Positions 4,601 through 39,496 of a DNA stretch of 39,496 bases are shown in pieces; the stretch's first letter is position 1; the number at the start of each line of letters is the position of its first letter. The stretch comes from Escherichia phage ZH4: sequence record OM355495.1, one strand, 5' to 3'. The notes below the pieces were generated by a model. It made no database searches, was not told the DNA's origin, and saw only the letters and a list, made by a program, of their open reading frames with translations. The position numbers and the translations under genes are program-made.

Positions 4601-5998
4601 ACGTGTCCTAGGATTCAGAGGGTTCTCACCAATCAGGATTGAACCATCTTCGAGTCGTACACTACCCGGCTCGTTCGGAACGTCAGCGAACCTAACTCCT
4701 TGATGACTAAAGGTCTGCTCACCTTCCTGAATAGGGAGACGAGACAGGTCCTGACCGTCAACGTTACGGGCTGTCTCGCGAGCTTCCAGACGTGTAGCTG
4801 GACCAGCGAACTCGTTAGTGTTACGACCTAAGGCTCTGCCTAAGCCATCAGCGATAGCAGTCATACCACCACCGAAGAGAGCACCACCAAGGATAGCTTC
4901 AGCCACATGAGCGTCACCACCAGCCACTGAGGTACGGGCCATCTCAGACACACCAGCCAGTGCTCCAGTTTGAGCAGCCACGGTGAACATCTTGTTTACC
5001 AGCTTACCCCCTTTACCAACCTGTCCAGCGATAGGAACGTAGGTCAGAGGGTCTACACCAGCACCAATCACACCAGCAGCTAACTGGGCACCAGTCCCAG
5101 CCTTGGCCTTCTCTTGGTCCAACTTCTGGTTCTCAAGAGCCAAGTTAATAAGCTCGGTCAGGTTCTGAGGAGACCCGCCAGTAAGGACCCCATAATACTG
5201 AGGCAGAACCCCAGCGTTACGAATCTGGTCCAGCTCCTCGCGAGTCCACTTATGGTTGTTCCATCTGGTAGGGTTAAACACATCGCCAATGACATCCAGT
5301 GAGTCCTCGGTCTGACCAGCGCGGATAGCCACGCCGACCATAGAGTTCTTCACTTCAGCTTCTGTAGCCGAACCGAAACCGAACCATGTAGAGCGGTCCT
5401 CTCGTTCCTGCATGGTATCGCCGGTAGCCTTATAGAACATCTCACCGAACGATTCGTTGGGAGCTTCAGGTGCTTGACCCTCAATATTCAGACCAGCAGC
5501 GGTCGGAAGGTTCTCACCCAGAGCTACTTTAGGTTTAGCCTTGAGTCCTTCCGTGAGTGCGTCAAATACGTTAGCGCTTACTGGTGGAGTCTTTGGGCTA
5601 ATGCCATTGAGTGCTCGTGCGACTCCCTTCTGATAGACTTCAGGGTCGTACCGGGAGCCTGTCTCATGGAAGCTGATAGCTTGAGCCAGAGAAGACAGGG
5701 TGTCAGGGTCCGAAAGGTCGAGACTCTGGGTAGCTGGAATACCAGTTGCAGCCACCACTGAGTCAATATAAGCCTTAGTGTCGTTCTCGTTAGGAGGCGC
5801 CCATCGGTTGATAATCTTCTCGATGGAGTCATAGCCTTGGCGACCGTAACTTAATAAGTTCTTACCCAAGGCCCGCACACCAGACTCTGGGCTATCAAAT
5901 ATTACAAACTCCCCATCATCGCCAATAGCTCCTTCCCATTGGTCCTTAGACTTACGGATATTTCCGGGGTTCGAATTTCTTATACCACGTGTTGCCAT
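1610..5998 (-). CDS. Internal virion protein D (T7 gp16 homolog), 1462 aa, with non-T7 N-terminal domain
   Basis: Track ORF; central and C-terminal regions align with T7 gp16 (e.g. MENPAMFG...SIFPGSRFKGTYVPVVY, NAYMGVQNLTEIGGM). RBS GGAG upstream of ATG. N-terminus (MATRGIRNSNPGNIR...) does not resemble the T7 SLT domain. Confidence 0.9.
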   Translation of the reverse strand: MATRGIRNSNPGNIRKSKDQWEGAIGDDGEFVIFDSPESGVRALGKNLLSYGRQGYDSIEKIINRWAPPNENDTKAYIDSVVAATGIPATQSLDLSDPDTLSSLAQAISFHETGSRYDPEVYQKGVARALNGISPKTPPVSANVFDALTEGLKAKPKVALGENLPTAAGLNIEGQAPEAPNESFGEMFYKATGDTMQEREDRSTWFGFGSATEAEVKNSMVGVAIRAGQTEDSLDVIGDVFNPTRWNNHKWTREELDQIRNAGVLPQYYGVLTGGSPQNLTELINLALENQKLDQEKAKAGTGAQLAAGVIGAGVDPLTYVPIAGQVGKGGKLVNKMFTVAAQTGALAGVSEMARTSVAGGDAHVAEAILGGALFGGGMTAIADGLGRALGRNTNEFAGPATRLEARETARNVDGQDLSRLPIQEGEQTFSHQGVRFADVPNEPGSVRLEDGSILIGENPLNPRTRQVFDEVIEPERAAAGVNLGGLTEIGLKLLRSENPEIRGVAADLVRSPTGMQSGASGKIGTTASDVFERLRAVDHRFYNDIDDAVTEALKDPYFQTAFWRDNSALREDVYKRVALAIEDGSGNLKTELTPGELKVYDLLKNQFDAKREMMENPAMFGRTDAQSIFPGSRFKGTYVPVVYSSQMKQLYIKELGSPEALQEAIKKSWLTSYASRPEVKARVDEMLAEQLRSSQPAAGKTVGTAPNPRSSVNTARDQMKLDDAATQAIDKVAELKDVLTNAEKRVADREKKLQNSKDRLASHEAKLKELEEKLAAKPKSKTIPVKIESRKQMIETQKSHVRINTERLDYMKGQADKVRDRITKATTEAEAAAAAAKGQKTAVDDQAPTAGETTSGNASQAAPEVTMDMVEKYANDKAYGISHTEQFERSSVMEENINGLVGLENNNFLEARNLFDNDMEIILPNGKAFSVNSLREWDMDKIVPAYNRRVNGDIAIMAGTGKTTKDMKDLVETMMNKAGDDGKLKGEVSTLRDTLKILTGRARRDGADDAAFATVMRTMTDLSFFAKNAYMGVQNLTEIGGMLARGNVRALLHGVPIFRDLAFRNKKVGASEIKDLHNVIFGKELDDSIRPSKQDVIDRLRAYSSLSKPTATALGSAKYYTGELAVRSPFTKVLNGTTNYLLDAGRQGFLSDIVEHSLTGSKRKFDDRWLKTAGISDEQWKGIKSLIRESVTRGPDGKYTIKDKKAFSQDPRAMDLWRMGDTIADETLLRPHKLSNMDAKAYGPLAKTVLQFKNFVIKSINGRTMRTFYNATKNNRAMDAALSTVISMGLAGIYYMAQAHVKAYAMQDGRDRDYLKQALDPTMIGYAALSRSSHLGGPLGVANILGGIAGYEDTKLLRSSILPRSPTEKPERAIAYGAATSDPVMNIVGNFLEQVPAFGYAANVGASAYNLAGYLKSDTRVNERDYMTGMYNTFRELVPNDPITQKLLLGTFEEQGIHIKD

Positions 5999-6429
5999 GT
6001 CTTTCTCCTTAAGATATTTCTAATAGAAACCGTACTCACTCCATAGGAACTAGCTAGGAATGAAACCTTTAGGCCGCTAGACCGTATGTTCTTCACATCA
6101 GTCTCTGTCAATTTGGATACTCCTATTGAGCTTCCAGACGCTTGACGACCTCTTTCCACCTTGTCTTTAATGTTGTCAGCCTGAGTTCCAGCCTCAAGAT
6201 GGTCAGGGTTTATGCAGGACGGATTGTCGCACTTATGGCGTACAACATACCCTTCAGGTATAGGACCACTGGCAAGCTCATAAGCTAGTCGATGTGCTCT
6301 ATACTTAACTCTGTTAATCATTATCGTACCATAACCGTCAGAATCTACGGTCCCAGTGAATCGGATACAGCCAGAGCTTTCAGCTACTGACAATTCTGCC
6401 AGTCTCTCACTGGCTGTCCCGTTCTTCAT
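5980..6429 (-). CDS. HNH homing endonuclease (intact), 149 aa
   Basis: HNH motif VVRHKCDNPSCINPDHLEAG plus a C-terminal DNA-binding-like segment KLTETDVKNIR...STVSIRNILRRKTW; RBS GGAG upstream; inserted between gp15 and gp16. Confidence 0.85.
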   Translation of the reverse strand: MKNGTASERLAELSVAESSGCIRFTGTVDSDGYGTIMINRVKYRAHRLAYELASGPIPEGYVVRHKCDNPSCINPDHLEAGTQADNIKDKVERGRQASGSSIGVSKLTETDVKNIRSSGLKVSFLASSYGVSTVSIRNILRRKTWQHVV

Positions 6430-12213: not shown

Positions 12214-12441
12214 TTAAATCATACTCATTAGGACGTATCCTTCAGCGATGTCACCAACGTCAGCAATGTGGATAACCTTACGAGCTACCTGTTGTCCAGT
12301 ATACCCGTTGTCCCACTCATTCAGGATAAGCCAATCGCCAACCTTAAAGTCCCGGTCGTTAAGTCTCAGCTCTGCTGTCTTTAGACCTAGCTGTACCGGA
12401 CCAAAGTGCTTGCGGTGAATCTTCAGGTTGTGACTAGCCAT
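12214..12441 (-). CDS. DUF3850 / ASCH-PUA-like small protein (75 aa), inserted between genes 11 and 12
   Basis: Sequence LKIHRKHFGPVQLGLKTAELRLNDRDFKVGDWLILNEWD...GYTGQQ fits the DUF3850 pattern as I remember it; RBS GGAGG; start overlaps gp11 stop (TAATG). Confidence 0.65.
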   Translation of the reverse strand: MASHNLKIHRKHFGPVQLGLKTAELRLNDRDFKVGDWLILNEWDNGYTGQQVARKVIHIADVGDIAEGYVLMSMI

Positions 12442-16941: not shown

Positions 16942-17196
16942 TTAAATAGAAATACCGCCACCAGAAGTGCGAGAGACCTGAAGGCTACGCTTACCGGAAC
17001 GCTTCACTTTCTTCCCGTCAGATGCAGTCACTTCGGTATCCACATCTTCAACTTTTTCGGTCGGGACTTCCACTGGTGCTGCTGGTGCTGGGGTCTGAGC
17101 CTCAACAACCTTAGGTGCATCATTAGCTCCAAGACCAACGGTCCCTAGCGTACTTTTCACCACTTTCTTGAATGCCTTGCTGATTGATTTACCCAC
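16942..17196 (-). CDS. Tail protein (T7 gp7.3 homolog), 84 aa; probable GTG start
   Basis: MGKSISKAFKKV... and C-terminal SRTSGGGISI versus T7 gp7.3 (MGKKVKKAVKKV...ARSSGGGINI); RBS AGGAG. Confidence 0.8.
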   Translation of the reverse strand: MGKSISKAFKKVVKSTLGTVGLGANDAPKVVEAQTPAPAAPVEVPTEKVEDVDTEVTASDGKKVKRSGKRSLQVSRTSGGGISI

Positions 17197-17593
17197 GATT
17201 AATCTCCTTAATTGTTACGATGTCTACCGACCCTGAAACATGCTTGACACGAGAATACCAGCTAAGACCCCAACGCTTGCACTCTTCGTCTATGATGTGC
17301 CTGACAGTCTCAAGAACCTTGCGGGAGGACTGCGAGTCACGACGAATAGCGACGATTGAAAGGTCAATACCGGGAGTCGGTCGGTGCCAAGATGCGGTAG
17401 CCAGCATGTAGAGATACGCTACTGGTTGACCTGATACATCGTAGATTGTGTATTCTTCACCGTCGAACTCGTCAGCCATACGGTAGGTATGAGCCTTGAA
17501 GTCCTCGAATGACTTGAAGTTAGACTGCCCGTCTTCCCAGAGGCGACAAGCGCACATGTGGCGACCTTCGCGTGAGTTGAGATATGGTAGCAT
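17189..17593 (-). CDS. T7 gp7-position protein (virion/host-range protein), 134 aa
   Basis: Track ORF between genes 6.7 and 7.3; assignment is positional, with size similar to T7 gp7. Confidence 0.55.
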   Translation of the reverse strand: MLPYLNSREGRHMCACRLWEDGQSNFKSFEDFKAHTYRMADEFDGEEYTIYDVSGQPVAYLYMLATASWHRPTPGIDLSIVAIRRDSQSSRKVLETVRHIIDEECKRWGLSWYSRVKHVSGSVDIVTIKEINRG

Positions 17594-24818: not shown

Positions 24819-25191
24819 TTATTTCCACCTCTTGTGGTTCCTGATTCGACTTATGGTTGTCTCACTTACTGAGTATTTTTCAGCCATAAACTTAAGGGTC
24901 TCGCTTGAGGTGCGAATATCCTTAACGTCATCTTCAGTTAGTTTTGAATTAAATGTCCTGCGTACTGAGCAGTCCATCATGTTTTCTGCCTGAGTCCCCC
25001 AACTCAAGGTGCTCAATGTTTACGCATGCACGGTTATCACACTTGTGTCTTACGACAAGACCTCCCGGTATAGCACCATTGGTCTCTATCCAAGCGGCTC
25101 TATGAGCACCCATAGATTGGCCACGGAATTTACGTCTACCATAGCCATCCTTATTGCGACTCTTAGCCCACTCGATGCAGTCACTTTCCAT
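24819..25191 (-). pseudogene. HNH homing endonuclease disrupted by +1 frameshift in a C5 (minus G5) homopolymer at 24996..25000
   Basis: Track ORF 24949..25200 carries the HNH motif (VVRHKCDNRACVNIEHLELG) and track ORF 24819..25016 carries the C-terminal segment (KLTEDDVKDIR...TISRIRNHKRWK). Removing one G from GGGGG restores ...HLELGTQAENMMD..., collinear with the intact paralog at 5980..6429. Confidence 0.75.
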
Positions 25192-25621
25192 TATAAACAA
25201 CGAGCTCTACTACGACCAGATTCAGATGTGACTGGAAGCGCTGTGCGTCAGTCGTGTGCATCTGGAGCAACTTATGGTTGAAGACGTGTGAGTTGCTGAT
25301 CTTCACGTAAACTTCTTCAGGCTTTCCGTGGACGATGAACGTCTGGCCTACACCAATCTTGTCGATGGTCAGGACTTCACGTTTAACGGTGACAGGAGGG
25401 ACGCTTGAGGCTGGCAGGACTTGTGGTTGACCGTCCTCTTTGATGGTATACAGCTGCTTCTGAAGGCTATTATTAACCCCTTCAAAGTAGGATAGCCCAA
25501 GGGTACACGTTTCACCATTTCCCCAGCGACCTGTGGTTCCATTAGTCTCAAACACTAGAGGGTCACTGACCGTTCCTGTAACTGTTACAGGGAACTTGTA
25601 ACCTTTTGCTTTCTGAGTCAT
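25181..25621 (-). CDS. Hypothetical protein, 146 aa (orphan ORF between endonuclease I and the HNH/lysozyme genes)
   Basis: Track ORF with RBS GGAG and ATGA overlap with the gene 3 stop; Thr/Val/Gly-rich; no T7 counterpart recognised. Confidence 0.6.
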   Translation of the reverse strand: MTQKAKGYKFPVTVTGTVSDPLVFETNGTTGRWGNGETCTLGLSYFEGVNNSLQKQLYTIKEDGQPQVLPASSVPPVTVKREVLTIDKIGVGQTFIVHGKPEEVYVKISNSHVFNHKLLQMHTTDAQRFQSHLNLVVVELVVYNGK

Positions 25622-30085: not shown

Positions 30086-32767
30086 TTAAGCGAATGCAAA
30101 GTCTGAAGACAAGATGTCTTCGATATTCAGTTTACCTTTCTTCGGAAGCTCAGGCAACTTGTCGCGCTGGCTCTCATGAAGCTGGTATTCGAACTGCTCG
30201 TAGAAGTCAAGCAGCACATCGTTGTCGCGGTAGGTCTCAACCATTGTCTCACGGACTCCACGGAACAGATACTCAGCGTCAGCCGGGATGGTCCCGAAGC
30301 TATCGTGAATCACTGCGAATGACATCACACCATACTTGCGGTGCGTGTGGACTACAGTCTTGCGGAGGTGGCTACCATCTTGTGAGTGGACGAAGTTCGG
30401 GCTGATGCCTGACTCCTGCTTGTGCTTGTCCAGCTCTTTCTTCGTGCCTTTGTTGACTGTAGGCTGAAGGTTGAACGACCCTAAGAACATCAGGTTCAGA
30501 CGAGTGGTATCCTTCTTGCGGTATTCCTGCCAGACCGGGAAACCATCAGGTGTGACCCAGTGTACCGGAAGGCAAGGCTTCAGGATTTCTCCAGTCTTCT
30601 TGTCTTTCACTTCAGCAGCCAGCAGCTTGGCAGCACCTTGAAGCCACTTCATCGCGTCAACCGCAGCAACTACGGTCACACTCACAGCTTCCCAAATCAT
30701 CTTAGCCATGAAGCGAGACGCTTGGCTTGGCTCGGTGAACATAGCGCCAGACCCTGAGTCAATCGCTGGCATCACGATGTCTTCGTACACTTGGTCTGCG
30801 AAGCCATACTCTTTCGACCCGTAGGCCAGAGTCATTACTGAACGCTTAGTGACCTTGCGTGACATACCGTAGGTCAGCCACTGACGGGCCAGCTCTCGTG
30901 TCCCCAGCTTGAGACGTTCGGTAATCTCACCAGTTTTCTTGTCCTCGTGAGTTACCATCTCGTTGTCCGTACCGTTAACCAGCATTACTTTAAGCTCCTC
31001 CTCGATGCGATCAGACACGATGCGGTAGATGTCTTGTACCTTCCCGGAAGGCGTCAGGTTTACTGCATGTCCACCGATGTGGTCACGAAGCATCGCGCTG
31101 AAGTGCTGAATCCCAGAGCATGACCCATCGAACGCTATCGGTAGCGAACAAGAGTAAGACAATCCGTGGTGCATTACTCCAGCATACTCGAAGCAGAACG
31201 CAAGGAAGCAGAAAGGAGAGTCTAGCTTGCCCCACCACTCAATGTTATCCATCGGTGCCTTAGCGGTAGCCATGATGTTGTCGTGATTGTCTTCCACCCA
31301 CTTGATGCGCTCCTCGAAGGTGACTTTATCGACGCCAGCACAGTTTGCACCATGGACCTTCAGCCATTTGAAACCATCAGCGCCAATAGGCTTGCCGACT
31401 GCAAGAGTCAGGAGACCCTTCTGCATGTCGTTACCCTGAGGGTTGAACATCGGGACAGCGTAGACACGACCCCGCCAGTCCATGTTGTACGGGAACCAGA
31501 TGGCCTTGAACTGAGAGAACTTGTTCGCTTGGTTAACGATAAAGCTCAGTGACAATCTGCGTGACTGTCTGGCCTTCTCGCGGCGATAGATACCAGCAGC
31601 AGCCTTCTTCCATGCCTTGAGTTCCTCCTCTGTCTCACCCGCATAGTCCTCAGGCTTCAGTGGTTCCATCTGAGGGATGTCGTCAATAGGCGTGTTGTTC
31701 AGCTTCTCGACCATGTTCACCACGTCCAGAACCTTCTTGTTCACTTTCCAAGGTGTATTCTGAATGATGTTCACAGCGTCATAGACTTCAGGCATGTACA
31801 CGTCTTCGTAACGTGCTACCGCAGACTTAGACCCTAAGCGAATCAATGGTAACGGTCTGCGACCTTTGGCCCAGTACCCACCGCCTACGACACCAGTCCA
31901 CGGCTTAGGTGGAACGACGCAAGGTTGATAGACTGGTGCGATACCCGCAAGGCTAAATCCACGTTGTGCCATCTTCTTTACCCAGAAGTCTGACAGGTGG
32001 ACCATCTCAACGTCAGCCGCTGCATTGCCAGCACCATAACGCTTAAGCTCGACCAGTTGAGTAGACTGGATGACAATCTCAAGCATCTTGATGCCAACGT
32101 GTACCGCCTCGGTCGGACTCCAAGTACCCCACGCATCTTCCAGTTGACCTTGCTCCAGCATGGAGGTCTCAACCGCTTGCATGTAGGCTTTCTTATAGGA
32201 TACCCCGGCTCGCTTGTTCAGGTTCTCAGCTATCGCCTTCTTGAAGTGCTCCTGCTCCTTGTCCCGAATGCGACCGAAGCGGATTTCATCTTCGAGTGTA
32301 CGGCCTATCGCTGAGGCCATCGGTGTAATCGGTATCCCTTCAGGCTTTACCAGCTTGGAGAGTATGACCTTCAGTATGATGACCGCAGCAGACTCGCAAG
32401 AGATACGCAGAGAGCGGTCCTTGACGGCCTTCCCTTCAGTGCTCAACATGGTGAACGCTACGCTAGGACGAGAGGTTGACAGCTTCCCGTCTGGGCCTTC
32501 GTGCCACTCCTTGACGGCTTGCGCAATCTTAGGGACCAGAGTCTGCATCAAAGGCTTGGCTACCTGATTGTCTGCCAGTTCTCCGCGCTCAGTCTGTCGC
32601 TCAAGGTTCTTAATGAAACGTCGCTCGCCTTCAGTGTATGCCTCATGCTCGAGCTGAAGTTGTTTTACTGCAAGGTCTTGCCCGTAGTGGTCGGCCAGCA
32701 GGTTAAACGGCTCAATAGCGTTCGACACATCAGAGAAGTCGTGTTTATCGATAGAGATGACGCTCAT
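30086..32767 (-). CDS. Single-subunit DNA-dependent RNA polymerase (T7 gp1 homolog), 893 aa
   Basis: Collinear with T7 RNAP over the whole length (DFSD...PFN.LADHYG, FQPCVVPPKPWTG..GGGYWA.GRRPL, WFPYNMDWRGRVYAV.MFNPQGNDM.KGLLTLA.GKPIG, DGSCSGIQHFSAMLRD, SVMTLAYGSKE.GF, HDSFGTIPADA, C-terminal FAFA). Specificity-loop region reads QPTVNKGTKK where T7 has QPTINTNKDS. Confidence 0.98.
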   Translation of the reverse strand: MSVISIDKHDFSDVSNAIEPFNLLADHYGQDLAVKQLQLEHEAYTEGERRFIKNLERQTERGELADNQVAKPLMQTLVPKIAQAVKEWHEGPDGKLSTSRPSVAFTMLSTEGKAVKDRSLRISCESAAVIILKVILSKLVKPEGIPITPMASAIGRTLEDEIRFGRIRDKEQEHFKKAIAENLNKRAGVSYKKAYMQAVETSMLEQGQLEDAWGTWSPTEAVHVGIKMLEIVIQSTQLVELKRYGAGNAAADVEMVHLSDFWVKKMAQRGFSLAGIAPVYQPCVVPPKPWTGVVGGGYWAKGRRPLPLIRLGSKSAVARYEDVYMPEVYDAVNIIQNTPWKVNKKVLDVVNMVEKLNNTPIDDIPQMEPLKPEDYAGETEEELKAWKKAAAGIYRREKARQSRRLSLSFIVNQANKFSQFKAIWFPYNMDWRGRVYAVPMFNPQGNDMQKGLLTLAVGKPIGADGFKWLKVHGANCAGVDKVTFEERIKWVEDNHDNIMATAKAPMDNIEWWGKLDSPFCFLAFCFEYAGVMHHGLSYSCSLPIAFDGSCSGIQHFSAMLRDHIGGHAVNLTPSGKVQDIYRIVSDRIEEELKVMLVNGTDNEMVTHEDKKTGEITERLKLGTRELARQWLTYGMSRKVTKRSVMTLAYGSKEYGFADQVYEDIVMPAIDSGSGAMFTEPSQASRFMAKMIWEAVSVTVVAAVDAMKWLQGAAKLLAAEVKDKKTGEILKPCLPVHWVTPDGFPVWQEYRKKDTTRLNLMFLGSFNLQPTVNKGTKKELDKHKQESGISPNFVHSQDGSHLRKTVVHTHRKYGVMSFAVIHDSFGTIPADAEYLFRGVRETMVETYRDNDVLLDFYEQFEYQLHESQRDKLPELPKKGKLNIEDILSSDFAFA

Positions 32768-32836
32768 ACTTAAAGTCCTTGTTATTAGTCTTTCACTTAA
32801 AGTCTCTTTGGTCTTTCACTTGGAGTCTTAGACCTT

Positions 32837-32859
32837 GAGTCCTATAGTGATAGTTAAGT
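32837..32859 (-). promoter_or_regulatory. Phage RNAP promoter directly upstream of the RNAP gene (minus sense CTTAACTATCACTATAGGACTC, +1 near 32842)
   Basis: Near-perfect consensus copy about 75 nt upstream of the gene 1 ATG; the leader contains tandem AAGUGAAAGAC repeats and an AAGGA RBS. Confidence 0.7.
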
Positions 32860-32864
32860 CAGAA

Positions 32865-33125
32865 TTACTTGAATATCAGCGGGTTAGCGTGAAGATGACT
32901 GAAGTCACCGTGAGTCGTGTGCTTGATTGTTGACCGTTGGTCTATCGCCTTCCAGCCTGAGACCAGAAGTTTACCATCGTCTGTGCTTGGTCGTCCACCA
33001 TACACCAGACACATCAGCTCGGACTTATGGCCCTCTGCTATCATGCGGCGCTGTAGGAACATATCGCGCTGTACTTGCTCCATGCGGCTACGGCTTGATG
33101 ATTTATTAGTGTATACGGTTTTCAT
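32865..33125 (-). CDS. Hypothetical early protein, 86 aa
   Basis: Track ORF in the early region between the Ocr and RNAP genes; no recognisable motifs; T7 has genes 0.4-0.7 here. Confidence 0.45.
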   Translation of the reverse strand: MKTVYTNKSSSRSRMEQVQRDMFLQRRMIAEGHKSELMCLVYGGRPSTDDGKLLVSGWKAIDQRSTIKHTTHGDFSHLHANPLIFK

Positions 33126-33328
33126 TACAGTTTACTCCCAAGTGTTGCTATATCCCAGACGTTCGCTAAGTTGCGCATGAATCGTCCATTAGGTTGACGC
33201 ACAGTCCAGCGACCCAGACGTGCATAGTTGAATTTATAGACTTTGCGTGCCTTGTTGATGTCTCTCACCAGCACGTAGGCGATAAGTCCATAGCCTATAA
33301 CTATCAATACTGCGATACCCATAGTCAT
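33125..33328 (-). CDS. Small membrane protein, 67 aa (early region)
   Basis: Track ORF; N-terminal hydrophobic helix GIAVLIVIGYGLIAYVLV followed by a basic segment; ATGA overlap with the preceding small ORF. Confidence 0.5.
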   Translation of the reverse strand: MTMGIAVLIVIGYGLIAYVLVRDINKARKVYKFNYARLGRWTVRQPNGRFMRNLANVWDIATLGSKL

Positions 33329-33429
33329 ATACCCCAGAACAGTTGAGTCAGGACCGGAAGTTTACCGACCAGCGTGAATACTCCCCACGCTACGAATCCA
33401 GATGCAGTCCAAATGATTGCAGTGCTCAT
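33325..33429 (-). CDS. Small hydrophobic peptide, 34 aa (early region)
   Basis: Own translation MSTAIIWTASGFVAWGVFTLVGKLPVLTQLFWGI with RBS AGGAG 6 nt upstream; translationally coupled to the next ORF. Below track cutoff. Confidence 0.35.
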   Translation of the reverse strand: MSTAIIWTASGFVAWGVFTLVGKLPVLTQLFWGI

Positions 33430-33496
33430 AGTTAGCTCCTATCAATTTAAGTGGTAATCTTTGAGGCCACCTATCATTTAGATGACCTCTCGTCTA

Positions 33497-33646
33497 TCAC
33501 TCAGTGTGCGAACTGTCGTACATGCTATTGCGGACCTCATAGACCACTTTCAAGAGACGCATAGCCGCATCGTGGTTTAACTGCCCAGTCTTGACCATAA
33601 TCCGGGCGTAGGTGACGTGGTGCTGGCAGAGACCATAAGTTACCAT
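33497..33646 (-). CDS. Small ORF, 49 aa, translationally coupled to Ocr (TAATG overlap)
   Basis: Own translation [49 protein letters not shown]; no RBS evaluated; low confidence. Confidence 0.3.
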   Translation of the reverse strand: MVTYGLCQHHVTYARIMVKTGQLNHDAAMRLLKVVYEVRNSMYDSSHTE

Positions 33647-34152
33647 TACTCGCAGTCCTCGTCAGCCGCAGGGTCGAACACTACGTTATCGTCGATGTCT
33701 TCGACTTTCAGGTGGCGACCTATCACATAGTGATCCTTGGCACATGCAGTAGCGACCTCAAGAGACACAGCTTGCTCAATGAGTACACCTGTCTTAGCGT
33801 CGACTACCCAATACTCATCCTCCTCGTCGCTCTCTTCAGCCTCAAACCATACCACATCCGAGCTATTAGACACGTCGTTATAAAGCGCCTCATAGATGCG
33901 AGCTTGCAGTATACGCGTTACGTCCTTGGTCTCAGGCATCAGCCCAGAGTCCTCAAACTCATGGTCTATACCATCAGCAGCCATCACCGTAAAAATCTCG
34001 TGGTAATAGTGCGGAACCTGACCGTCTACGACTTCATGCAGCGCATCGTGGTAGTCATCGCTTTCAGCTATTTCGTCGTACTGAATACGCTCGTTAAATG
34101 CTTTAACGGTTGCGGCCAGCAGCTCATAGTATGCGTTAGCGTTACGTTCCAT
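33646..34152 (-). CDS. ocr: Ocr-like DNA-mimic anti-restriction protein (T7 gp0.3 homolog) with a C-terminal extension, 168 aa
   Basis: [66 protein letters not shown] matches T7 Ocr ([66 protein letters not shown]). First gene after the host promoters. About 50 extra C-terminal residues beyond the acidic tail. Confidence 0.9.
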
Positions 34153-34494: not shown

Positions 34495-34530
34495 TGGTAC
34501 ATATTACTTTAAGTCGGTACATCTTGTCAA
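34495..34530 (-). promoter_or_regulatory. Host sigma70-type early promoter: -35 TTGACA, 18-nt spacer, -10 TAATAT, followed by GTACCAC
   Basis: Minus sense TTGACAagatgtaccgacttaaagTAATATgtaccacg, about 350 nt upstream of the Ocr gene; near-consensus hexamers. Confidence 0.7.
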
Positions 34531-38657: not shown

Positions 38658-39496
38658 TTAATTTGATATTTGTTTCCAGTCAGAACTAGTCAACCCGTGT
38701 GACTTCCACCATGAGTTAGCGCTGTCACTCCATACTTCTTGCCCTATAAAGCGAGGAATTACTGTAGCTACAGGAGTAGGGCCGGATACAACTTGATACC
38801 CATACTTAGCTGGTCCTATAGCATTGTTCAAGATAAAATCTTTAGTTATTCCTCTTGCGCCATTAAACCACTCTAGATCCGTACCGCTAATACCGCTAAT
38901 AAACTCAGGTGAAAACTTAGTGAAACTGCAGCCAGCGTTCACTCGTGCCCCGTTGTAAGCGCTATATCCACTAGCCTGCGTGTTGCTCCAGCGACCACCA
39001 ACCACACTACCGTTGCTGCAATTTAAGAAGTACGCAGCATATCTAGCGAAACCTTCCAGGTTAACGTTTACAAGCTCAAATCCTGATGCACCATTGCACT
39101 GGATGCCATCATTGTTCGGTACACCACTTGTTGCTATTTGTGGGTTAGAGGCATACCCAGTTAAATTTGCACCATTAATAAAAATGCCGGTATTGGTATT
39201 CGCACCAAAGTATATACCAACTCCAGAGCAGTTCTGAACACTCAGGTTATTGATACGAATACCACTGGCATAGTTGAAACTGATAGCTCGTTCAGCCGCA
39301 CGCACACTCCTGTACCCAAAACCAATATCACGAAGGCGTATGTTACTCATAGTGATGTTAGCTGGGTTCATGCCTTGTGTTTCCGATTCAAACCCTTCAA
39401 ACGTTATTCCATTGCCACAGTTTGTAGCTATGACATTATCCACAACAATGTCAGCAACATAGCGTTTGAATCCCATAGCTCCATGAGCACAGTCCC
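38658..39496 (-). CDS. Tail fiber / tailspike (gene 17), C-terminal part with right-handed beta-helix (pectate-lyase-like) domain; continues upstream across the window junction (39370..39496 duplicates 1..127)
   Basis: Track ORF 38658..39476 is in frame with the minus-strand ORF from 1544. Repeated beta-helix-like rungs ([48 protein letters not shown]) typical of phage tailspike depolymerases. Confidence 0.85.
   Translation of the reverse strand, partial: DCAHGAMGFKRYVADIVVDNVIATNCGNGITFEGFESETQGMNPANITMSNIRLRDIGFGYRSVRAAERAISFNYASGIRINNLSVQNCSGVGIYFGANTNTGIFINGANLTGYASNPQIATSGVPNNDGIQCNGASGFELVNVNLEGFARYAAYFLNCSNGSVVGGRWSNTQASGYSAYNGARVNAGCSFTKFSPEFISGISGTDLEWFNGARGITKDFILNNAIGPAKYGYQVVSGPTPVATVIPRFIGQEVWSDSANSWWKSHGLTSSDWKQISN
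39370..39496. repeat. 127-bp exact duplicate of window positions 1..127 (circular-assembly overlap, lies inside gene 17)
   Basis: Direct comparison of the window ends; ORF-track coordinates confirm an offset of 39,369. Confidence 0.9.

Follow-up and report, generated by a model that had tools for sequence, protein, structure and literature searches.

The early region of phage T7 runs in the order 0.3-0.4-0.5-0.6-0.7-1, with three small genes (0.4, 0.5, and 0.6) between gene 0.3 and the kinase gene 0.7, and gp0.5 is a hydrophobic peptide of 47 aa. Recent work identified T7K as a kinase with broad anti-defence activity. Gp0.4 of T7 is described as an FtsZ inhibitor (Kiro et al., 2013, as cited in PMC9372555). 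Six of its residues (V15, V22, W28, M32, L35, and Y39) are each needed for FtsZ inhibition, and W28L or W28A destroys the activity (PMC13423816). Infection by phage K1F leads to multi-ring filaments. The Sagona laboratory inferred an inhibitor, reported in 2022 as "unknown," and their BLAST for a gp0.4 homologue in K1F found none (PMC9372555). The absence of gene 0.7 was published in 2014 for CR44b, a relative of the phage described here.

We examined a stretch of 39,496 nt from Escherichia phage ZH4 (OM355495.1), referred to as the window. Its nucleotide identity to many Kayfunavirus genomes is ~93% (for several records, over 86-88% of a 25-kb query) and its gene order is T7-type; the high identity and the synteny with K1F-type genomes place it in the genus Kayfunavirus (Studiervirinae). 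The early interval, from the stop of the Ocr-like gene to the start of gene 1, covers 878 nt of the minus strand (32768-33645) and contains four closely packed ORFs of 49, 34, 67, and 86 aa. Measured from the ORF coordinates and the minus-strand ORF listing, this agrees with the initial annotation, which had described about 880 bp and the same four ORFs. The region is the usual set of early genes, already annotated, of a T7-like phage of the K1F type (Kayfunavirus), one without the gene 0.7 kinase. Its layout is not new either: 0.3, 0.35, a small ORF, 0.6/0.37, 0.38, a phage promoter, and gene 1 are already annotated in K1F and EcoDS1. The kinase-less observation by itself adds little, since existing annotations of K1F-type phages already show no gene 0.7. 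As an explanation of the whole, we are fairly confident that this is a class I (early), non-essential block of a K1F-type Kayfunavirus, carried on the minus strand, and that, of the forms taken by a polymorphic early region, it is the one without a kinase.

Gene 0.3 (33646..34152, minus strand) encodes a 168-aa Ocr-like DNA-mimic anti-restriction protein that runs ~50 aa beyond T7 Ocr at the C-terminus. The protein falls in the Ocr domain family (Pfam ocr, PF08684; E = 1.2e-31, 109.6 bits with a cut-off of 25), matches phrog_2568 (ocr-like; E = 4.8e-55), and is 52% identical to T7 gp0.3. In several GenBank records the Ocr-like gene is misannotated as "protein kinase," a label that could mislead automated surveys of kinase distribution. 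Upstream of gene 0.3, a consensus scan gave a candidate host sigma-70 early promoter, TTGACA-18-TAATAT, with 10/12 matches (34501..34530, minus strand). Sigma-70 consensus matches in the region are not above those in shuffles, and the candidate is proposed from its position; three host promoters are annotated at the equivalent place in EcoDS1. By T7 biology and the EcoDS1 annotation, host RNA polymerase would transcribe the block from sigma-70 promoters upstream of gene 0.3. The first product would be Ocr, which by its family would act as a DNA-mimic inhibitor of type I restriction.

At the other end of the block lies gene 1 (30086..32767, minus strand), encoding a single-subunit phage RNA polymerase of 893 aa that is 63% identical to T7 gp1 over 898 aa. 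A phage RNA polymerase promoter, TTAACTATCACTATAGGA (32840..32857, minus strand), is located ~90 nt before the ATG of gene 1. It is one of 10 consensus-matching sites in the window, where none is expected by chance. A phage promoter lies 90-96 nt upstream of gene 1 in every related Kayfunavirus locus examined, and the equivalent site in the EcoDS1 record is annotated as "promoter phi." Because a phage-type promoter precedes gene 1, the polymerase gene can presumably be transcribed by its own product too.

The four small ORFs are more than chance and are predicted genes. Three of the junctions are translationally coupled (TAATG, ATGA, and TAATG). A Shine-Dalgarno-like motif precedes the 49-, 34-, and 86-aa ORFs; the start of the 67-aa ORF has a weak G-rich stretch only and depends on the ATGA overlap with the 34-aa ORF. 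All four are intact in relatives, and tblastn found matches in 180, 34, 631, and 214 phage records for the 49-, 34-, 67-, and 86-aa ORFs, respectively. In the same order, pooled dN/dS was 0.50 (n = 18), 0.14 (n = 3), 0.22 (n = 21), and 0.29 (n = 23), compared with 0.05 for the N-terminus of the RNA polymerase. The profile searches that the initial annotation had suggested assigned the 49-aa product to phrog_5058 (E = 4e-24), the 67-aa product to phrog_2385 (E = 3.7e-31), and the 86-aa product to phrog_7066 (E = 4.8e-41), and gave no PHROG, Pfam, or NCBIfam match for the 34-aa product.

The 49-aa ORF (33497..33646, minus strand) belongs to the K1F gp0.35 family, and its start overlaps the Ocr stop (TAATG). 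Judged by sequence, it is a diverged homologue, and orthologue, of T7 gp0.4. The two proteins align by pairwise BLASTP at E = 4e-6, with 42% identity over 36 aa. The 49-aa protein cross-matches the T7 gp0.4 family, phrog_7202, at 6.6e-4 and the reverse cross-match is 9e-5, while hhalign of the two families gave E = 2.9e-5 and a probability of 74%. Over all six-frame segments of both genomes, the two are reciprocal best HMM matches (E = 1e-3 and 5e-3; next best > 0.8). Gp0.4 of phage K11 is intermediate and matches both, and the precomputed Pfam label PF26807 is found on members of both families. The 1-nt stop/start overlap with gene 0.3 is common to the window, T7 (0.3/0.4), and K11. Significant similarity and a coupled position directly downstream of gene 0.3 thus both point to the gp0.4 family. 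An AF2 model of the 49-aa protein has two helices and moderate confidence (pLDDT 67). A Foldseek search of this model against viral structures returned its own family alone at E < 1e-3, with an unnamed 44-aa protein as runner-up (E = 0.08); a helical hairpin this short makes the outcome uninformative. The likeness to gp0.4 looks like the one useful new lead of the region.

A gap of 67 nt follows the 49-aa ORF and contains a conserved 11-bp RNA hairpin (33463..33489, minus strand), after which comes a strong Shine-Dalgarno sequence (TAGGAG) for the next gene. The hairpin has an MFE of -19.8 kcal/mol (z = -3.0) and no U-tail, and terminator prediction gave no call. It is kept in ~10 relatives before differing downstream peptides, with stem changes from G-U to G-C or A-U in an alignment judged by eye. 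It stands in the position of R0.5 in T7 and is possibly an RNase III or mRNA-processing site. The next gene encodes a hydrophobic micro-peptide of 34 aa (33325..33429, minus strand; AGGAG 7 nt upstream). It is an accessory cassette; the slot that it occupies, with the gp0.4-like gene on one side and the gp0.6A-like gene on the other, is variable and holds other cassettes in relatives. The peptide is also found in LM33_P1, IME177, and CR44b, where it is annotated as gene 0.41. A tblastn of T7 gp0.5 and gp0.6A against the window gave nothing significant. In the order of products, the conserved hairpin would be followed by a swappable hydrophobic micro-peptide, a positional analogue of T7 gp0.5. 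In a bolder version, the slot may be a hot spot for counter-defence cassettes, with a promiscuous kinase and hydrophobic micro-peptides as alternative payloads.

The initial annotation predicted two membrane peptides among the small ORFs, and hydropathy agrees: the highest Kyte-Doolittle mean over a 19-residue span reaches 1.64 in the 34-aa peptide and 2.52 (residues 3-21) in the 67-aa protein. The latter (33125..33328, minus strand) is K1F gp0.37/"0.6," a predicted single-pass membrane protein with a pI of 11 and a basic, highly conserved C-terminal domain. Its profile, N-terminal TM segment, basic C-terminal domain, and BLASTP match to K11 and BA14 gp0.6A (E = 1.7e-11) assign it to the gp0.6A family, and the 631 phage records found for it take in K11 and BA14 gp0.6A. 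The protein would be anchored in the inner membrane. Some records label it "0.6," but homology to T7 gp0.6, the MreB inhibitor, was rejected (hhalign probability of 0.4% with T7 gp0.6A); the label is positional. The 86-aa gene (32865..33125, minus strand) encodes a basic soluble protein of the K1F gp0.38 family, which is an orphan family confined to phages of the Kayfunavirus type. Only 13 small relatives, none informative, were found by a profile search of 1.84 billion representative proteins, and an AF2 model from 43 sequences was unusable (pLDDT 50). We also considered the 86-aa protein as a remnant of gp0.7, e.g., its shut-off domain, and rejected this: hhalign with gp0.7 gave a probability of 0.2%, there was no kinase PHROG match, and the gene coexists with the kinase in other phages (see below). 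This basic orphan protein is probably the last product before the phage promoter. Pfam and NCBIfam scans, together with the 86-aa profile search, found no annotated homologues by which to assign a function to the 34-, 67-, and 86-aa proteins.

The initial annotation also claimed that the early region lacks a gp0.7 kinase, and this holds for the window as a whole. The best tblastn hit of T7 gp0.7 against the entire window had an E-value of 1.2, and no similarity to the gp0.7 kinase family (phrog_2828/phrog_15752) was found in it. Apart from tail-fibre ORFs of 514 and 272 aa at the two ends of the window, every ORF without a T7 match is 146 aa or shorter. When ORFs without such a match were scanned with Pfam and NCBIfam, no kinase domain came up; the scanned set does not include the 514-aa ORF at 1-1544, which matches T7 gp17 over part of its length. 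The test has power, since the T7, K11, and BA14 gp0.7 queries detect the kinase in seven related loci. Since the window encodes no gp0.7 kinase, whether inside the interval from Ocr to gene 1 or outside it, phosphorylation of host proteins by this kinase is very likely absent, and with it, as the initial annotation had proposed, shut-off by that route. Homologues of the host-polymerase inhibitors are retained downstream in the window, as in T7 (gp2, E = 1e-9; gp5.7, E = 2.5e-36), so the kinase is not the only route to host transcription shut-off. A phage lacking it would rely on these gp2 and gp5.7 homologues for host shut-off and would not carry out the wide-ranging anti-defence phosphorylation reported for T7K. 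We also tried S/T/Y depletion (after PMC13645617) as evidence of a kinase-less phage. The S+T+Y fraction of early proteins is 0.143 in the window vs. 0.126 in T7, and the early/late ratio is 0.90 vs. 0.81; the direction fits a kinase-less phage and the difference is too small to count.

Lack of the kinase is not a genus-wide trait, as other Kayfunavirus species carry a 244-aa kinase. In IMM-002, SFPH2, and SAKp10309 it occurs together with the 67- and 86-aa genes, which makes the kinase a variable cassette within the genus and also dismisses the 86-aa gene as the filler of a "kinase slot." About four-fifths of sequenced Kayfunavirus-type phages are without the kinase and about one-fifth have the short version. 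Among 25 related loci, 7 have a SAMase and the kinase without a gp0.4-like gene, and 18 have the gp0.4-like gene without the kinase. Strict mutual exclusion of the two is contradicted by LET1, which carries both, and by SAKp10309, which has Ocr, the gp0.4-like gene, and the kinase, the last in the slot held by the 34-aa peptide in the window. The pattern probably reflects two clades. The genus thus offers a ready-made set of phages in which to compare what is gained by having the kinase.

The part of the initial interpretation that did not stand is the word "instead," i.e., that small membrane peptides are encoded in place of the kinase. T7 has 0.4, 0.5, and 0.6 beside 0.7, so small ORFs are the normal state and not a substitute. 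Functional replacement of gp0.7 by the small (membrane) peptides, as an alternative means of host takeover, is in our view very improbable. The 34-aa peptide does sit in the slot used by the kinase in SAKp10309, but it is the only one of the four to do so and is present in only 34 of ~180 kinase-less records. The 18 vs. 7 split between gp0.4-like gene and kinase would also suit replacement, were it not for SAKp10309 and LET1. Furthermore, T7 and K11 combine gp0.4, small ORFs, and the kinase, the 67-aa family adjoins the kinase in K11 and BA14, and the 67- and 86-aa genes stand beside it in the three phages named above. Another reading is that certain small ORFs, the 34-aa one above all, arose by chance in a leader or processing region and are not genes. 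An open frame of 34 codons is a frequent chance occurrence, and this one is missing from most relatives and lacks any profile match. It nevertheless has a strong AGGAG and an ATGA overlap with the next gene, and is full-length and intact in 32 of 34 records at 76-97% amino acid identity. Its dN/dS is low (though n = 3 only), and in most relatives examined the slot carries another hydrophobic peptide, of 29 or 55 aa, after the same hairpin and Shine-Dalgarno sequence. We consider the chance reading unlikely, and retain all four as predicted genes.

A different question is what the 49-aa protein does. The two-helix protein most likely binds FtsZ and blocks host division. T7 Gp0.4 V15, V22, W28, M32, L35, and Y39 align to V11, V18, H25, M29, L32, and Y36, all of them invariant or nearly so in the 49-aa family. 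Five of these six FtsZ-contact residues are identical (V11, V18, M29, L32, and Y36; hypergeometric p ~0.035-0.04), compared with 0/5 for the CapRel(Ebc)-contact residues of T7 Gp0.4. We give even chances to the more specific proposal that the 49-aa gene (K1F gp0.35 family, ~180 sequenced phages) is the "unknown" FtsZ inhibitor of K1F, a gp0.4 variant in which the FtsZ face is kept and the CapRel(Ebc) face replaced. A protein of gp0.4 descent might also have lost FtsZ as its target. It would then have another partner or only a regulatory or structural role, and the K1F division inhibitor would be another early protein, e.g., the 67- or 86-aa product. An invariant His (H25) stands in for the essential W28, which could mean a different FtsZ interface or a changed target; none of the five residues on the CapRel-contact face is the same as in T7 Gp0.4; and T3, Bas67, and Bas68 manage without gp0.4. 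The dN/dS of 0.50, the highest of the block, indicates relaxed constraint and counts against a gp0.4 function. Set against these points are the five identical contact residues and the fact that K1F carries a 49-aa-type gene and gives a gp0.4-like phenotype. Loss of the FtsZ target is a possibility to which we give limited weight. If instead the FtsZ-inhibitor proposal is correct, replacement of the face read by CapRel(Ebc) means that the 49-aa protein may inhibit division yet escape the sensor. The gene is a concrete, cheaply testable candidate for the K1F division inhibitor, and a natural variant for mapping the Gp0.4 surfaces read by FtsZ vs. CapRel.

Compared with T7, the window shares Ocr, a translationally coupled gp0.4-type gene, a hydrophobic micro-peptide, more small genes, and gene 1. 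T7 Gp0.4 and the 49-aa protein have in common a size of ~50 aa, a predicted two-helix hairpin, and a gene directly after 0.3, but the former is acidic (pI 4.7) and the latter basic (pI 8.0). The counterparts of gp0.5 and gp0.6 in the window are non-homologous, and the resemblance of gp0.5 to the 34-aa peptide is limited to position and hydrophobicity. The window has a phage promoter before gene 1, a place where only the E. coli C promoter is found in T7. Like the 67-aa protein, the 65-aa gp0.6A proteins of Klebsiella phage K11 and coliphage BA14 have an N-terminal TM segment and a conserved RFTVR-x-NGRF motif, with only 37-41% identity; in both phages the gene is directly upstream of a full-length gene 0.7, which the window does not have. 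Nearer relatives are the kinase-bearing Kayfunaviruses (IMM-002, SFPH2, Dev2, Pisces, and SAKp10309), whose RNA polymerase N-termini are 92-94% identical to that of the window and which share the gp0.6A-like and gp0.38 genes and the promoter before gene 1. They differ in the gp0.7-type kinase, which at 244 aa is ~115 residues shorter than T7 gp0.7, and most have a SAMase in place of Ocr and no gp0.4-like gene. K1F (AM084414/DQ111067) and EcoDS1 (NC_011042) have the families of the window in an identical order: 0.3 (Ocr-like), 0.35 (49-50 aa), a small ORF, 0.37/"0.6" (65 aa), 0.38, the phage promoter, and gene 1, with no gene 0.7. Between 0.35 and 0.37, K1F has a 55-aa two-segment hydrophobic protein (gp0.36) where the window has the 34-aa peptide, and the early proteins of the window are 67-88% identical to those of K1F and EcoDS1.

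The window is a complete genome of a Kayfunavirus, i.e., a K1F-like T7-like podovirus (Autographiviridae, Studiervirinae), and its sequence is circularly permuted and reverse-complemented. With the T7 proteome as tblastn query, the T7 gene order was recovered on the minus strand of the window, from gene 0.3 to gene 19. Several Kayfunavirus genomes are ~93% identical to a 25-kb query over 86-88% of its length, and a 1.5-kb query around the early block matches 243 phage records at ~90% identity, including K1F, LM33_P1 and IME177. The tail-fibre/tailspike gene appears split across the window ends (1-1544 and 38658-39476, both minus strand) because the genome is circularly permuted; its high-end part has a weak beta-helix match. 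Genes 15 and 16 are separated by an inserted 149-aa HNH homing endonuclease-like ORF (5980-6429, minus strand), which resembles T7 gp7.7, gp2.8 and gp3.8. A 75-aa ORF with a DUF3850/ASCH domain (12214-12441, minus strand; E 2.9e-19) lies between genes 11 and 12, a position without a gene in T7. We found no T7, Pfam or NCBIfam match for a 146-aa ORF between genes 3 and 3.5 (25181-25621, minus strand) or a 134-aa ORF in the gene 7 position (17189-17593, minus strand).

The early block, also on the minus strand, begins with an Ocr-like gene (33646-34152; Pfam ocr, E 1.2e-31) and leads to the RNA polymerase gene, gene 1 (30086-32767). By analogy with T7, the block would be transcribed early by the host RNA polymerase and Ocr would block type I restriction. 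At 168 aa, the Ocr-like protein is ~50 aa longer than T7 Ocr. Several GenBank records of relatives label this gene as a protein kinase (IME177, LM33_P1 and Vec13; MZ398247, LT594300, MH400309). Pfam and PHROG both return Ocr and no kinase domain, thus the label is a mis-annotation.

The initial annotation described ~880 bp with four small ORFs between the Ocr and polymerase genes. The interval is 878 nt, and the ORF listing places in it ORFs of 49 aa (33497-33646), 34 aa (33325-33429), 67 aa (33125-33328) and 86 aa (32865-33125), all on the minus strand. In K1F terms, the 49-, 67- and 86-aa ORFs are 0.35, 0.37 (named "0.6" in a second K1F record) and 0.38, and the 34-aa ORF is a cassette in place of 0.36. 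Stop and start codons overlap at three junctions of the block. The 49-, 34- and 86-aa ORFs are preceded by a Shine-Dalgarno-like motif, and the 67-aa ORF depends on an ATGA overlap with the 34-aa ORF. Relatives keep all four reading frames intact; dN/dS is 0.50 (49 aa), 0.14 (34 aa), 0.22 (67 aa) and 0.29 (86 aa), as compared to 0.05 for the polymerase N-terminus. Two had been predicted to be membrane peptides. Hydropathy agrees: the 34-aa protein has one TM-like segment and the 67-aa protein a strong TM segment at its N-terminus, supporting membrane anchoring of both.

A gp0.7 kinase is missing from the early block, as first proposed, and from the rest of the window. T7 gp0.7 had no tblastn match in the window (best E 1.2), and no kinase came up when the ORFs lacking a T7 match were scanned with Pfam and NCBIfam. 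The same kind of gp0.7 query readily detects kinases in related loci, so the negative search has power. Leaving aside the tail-fibre ORFs at either end of the window, the longest minus-strand ORF without a T7 match is 146 aa. Homologues of gp2 and gp5.7, two other T7 inhibitors of host RNA polymerase, were found by tblastn. The Ser/Thr/Tyr fraction is slightly higher here than in T7, both in the early proteins (0.143 vs. 0.126) and in the RNA polymerase (0.134 vs. 0.123). The direction is that expected if kinase-driven depletion were absent, and the effect is small.

Lack of the kinase is not a trait of the genus, as kinase-bearing Kayfunavirus loci exist; IMM-002 and SFPH2, both kinase-bearing, are ICTV Kayfunavirus species. 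A gp0.4-like gene without a kinase is found in 18/25 related loci, while the other seven carry a SAMase gp0.3 and a 244-aa gp0.7-type kinase without a gp0.4-like gene. The 67- and 86-aa genes are present in all kinase-bearing loci. The small ORFs had been put forward as candidates for host takeover in a kinase-less early region; the observation stands, but the interpretation holds only in part, since small ORFs coexist with the kinase in relatives. Across the phage database, ~180 records have the gp0.4-like gene, ~42 the Kayfunavirus-type kinase (at least 80% identity) and 214 the 86-aa gene. The alternative early modules, compared in loci L020-L022, L024, L025/L030 (IMM-002), L027, L031 (SFPH2) and L033 (Klebsiella phage SAKp10309), are Ocr with the gp0.4-like gene, SAMase with the 244-aa kinase and, rarely, Ocr with both the gp0.4-like gene and a kinase. 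SAKp10309 has this last combination, its kinase lying between the gp0.4-like and gp0.6A-like genes. Another related locus, L023, combines the Ocr module with an RNA polymerase background of the kind usual in the kinase group, suggesting recombination.

The interval between the gp0.4-like and gp0.6A-like genes is a variable slot among relatives, holding a hydrophobic peptide of 29, 34 or 55 aa or a soluble cassette of 41, 66, 75 or 115 aa. In the window, a conserved hairpin and the 34-aa peptide occupy this slot; the peptide is a sporadic cassette (34 records) annotated as gene 0.41 in CR44b. The 11-bp hairpin (33463-33489, minus strand; z = -3.0) lacks a U-tail and lies between the 49- and 34-aa ORFs. 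Relatives keep it, with the same TAGGAG ribosome-binding site, ahead of differing micro-peptides. The hairpin could be the analogue of T7 R0.5, serving as an RNase III or processing site.

The family of the 67-aa protein, phrog_2385, is widespread (631 phage records), and its C-terminal domain is under strong constraint in the family alignment. It also takes in K11 and BA14 gp0.6A (E 1.7e-11), encoded in both phages just upstream of a full-length gene 0.7 kinase. A relationship to T7 gp0.6A was considered and rejected, as the family comparison showed none. The 86-aa protein is an orphan of narrow distribution (phrog_7066, 214 records), and a search of 1.84 billion representative proteins found only 13 relatives. 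Its family showed no relation to gp0.7, and its AF2 model was unusable.

Unlike T7, the window has a phage RNA polymerase promoter, TTAACTATCACTATAGGA (32840-32857, minus strand), ~90 nt upstream of gene 1, implying positive autoregulation of that gene. This one included, 10 sites in the window fit the consensus. All related loci have the promoter equally far from gene 1, and in L027 a single variant, TAAACCCTCACTATAGGA, is shared by both promoters.

Only one lead is new, and it is modest: by sequence comparison, the 49-aa gene is a diverged gp0.4. Its product belongs to phrog_5058 and also matches phrog_7202, the T7 gp0.4 family (E 6.6e-4); the reverse match of T7 gp0.4 to phrog_5058 has E 9e-5. 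BLASTP against T7 gp0.4 gave E 4e-6 with 15/36 residues identical, and profile-profile comparison of the families gave E 2.9e-5 (probability 74%). K11 gp0.4 is intermediate, matching both proteins. Among all six-frame segments of the window and T7 genomes, the two family HMMs are reciprocal best matches (E 1e-3 and 5e-3; next best >0.8), and members of both families share the precomputed Pfam label PF26807. As in T7 and K11, the start codon shares one base with the gene 0.3 stop codon. The AF2 model has two helices (residues 3-19 and 25-47; pLDDT 67).

Alanine at V15, V22, W28, M32, L35 or Y39 of T7 Gp0.4 abolishes toxicity, and W28L and L35P each abolish FtsZ binding (PMC13423816). These six positions align to V11, V18, H25, M29, L32 and Y36 of the 49-aa protein, all invariant or nearly so across its family. 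Five of the six are identical, against an expected 42% (p ~0.035-0.04). None of the five residues with an implied role in contacting CapRel(Ebc) (A12, T14, L16, S19, R23) is kept (Q, H, T, R, K). The 49-aa protein probably inhibits FtsZ, the aligned change of W28 to His being the main reason for caution. In PMC9372555, where K1F infection produced multi-ring filamentous cells, the authors described the inhibitor as unknown and K1F as a phage that "lacks the 0.4 genes". The gp0.35 family is the obvious candidate for this inhibitor.

The kinase-less early region itself is an ordinary, already known feature. We did not find gp0.35, gp0.37 or gp0.38 discussed in the literature searched. Absence of a gene 0.7 homologue from the relative CR44b, unlike CR8, was stated in 2014 (PMC4038870). 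T7K is a hyper-promiscuous anti-defence kinase common in Autographiviridae (PMC13645617), so a lineage without it is biologically relevant, though not new. K1F is annotated with 0.3, 0.35-0.38 and gene 1. The EcoDS1 annotation (0.3, 0.35, an ORF, 0.6, 0.38, a promoter already named "phi", and gene 1) is the layout of the window.
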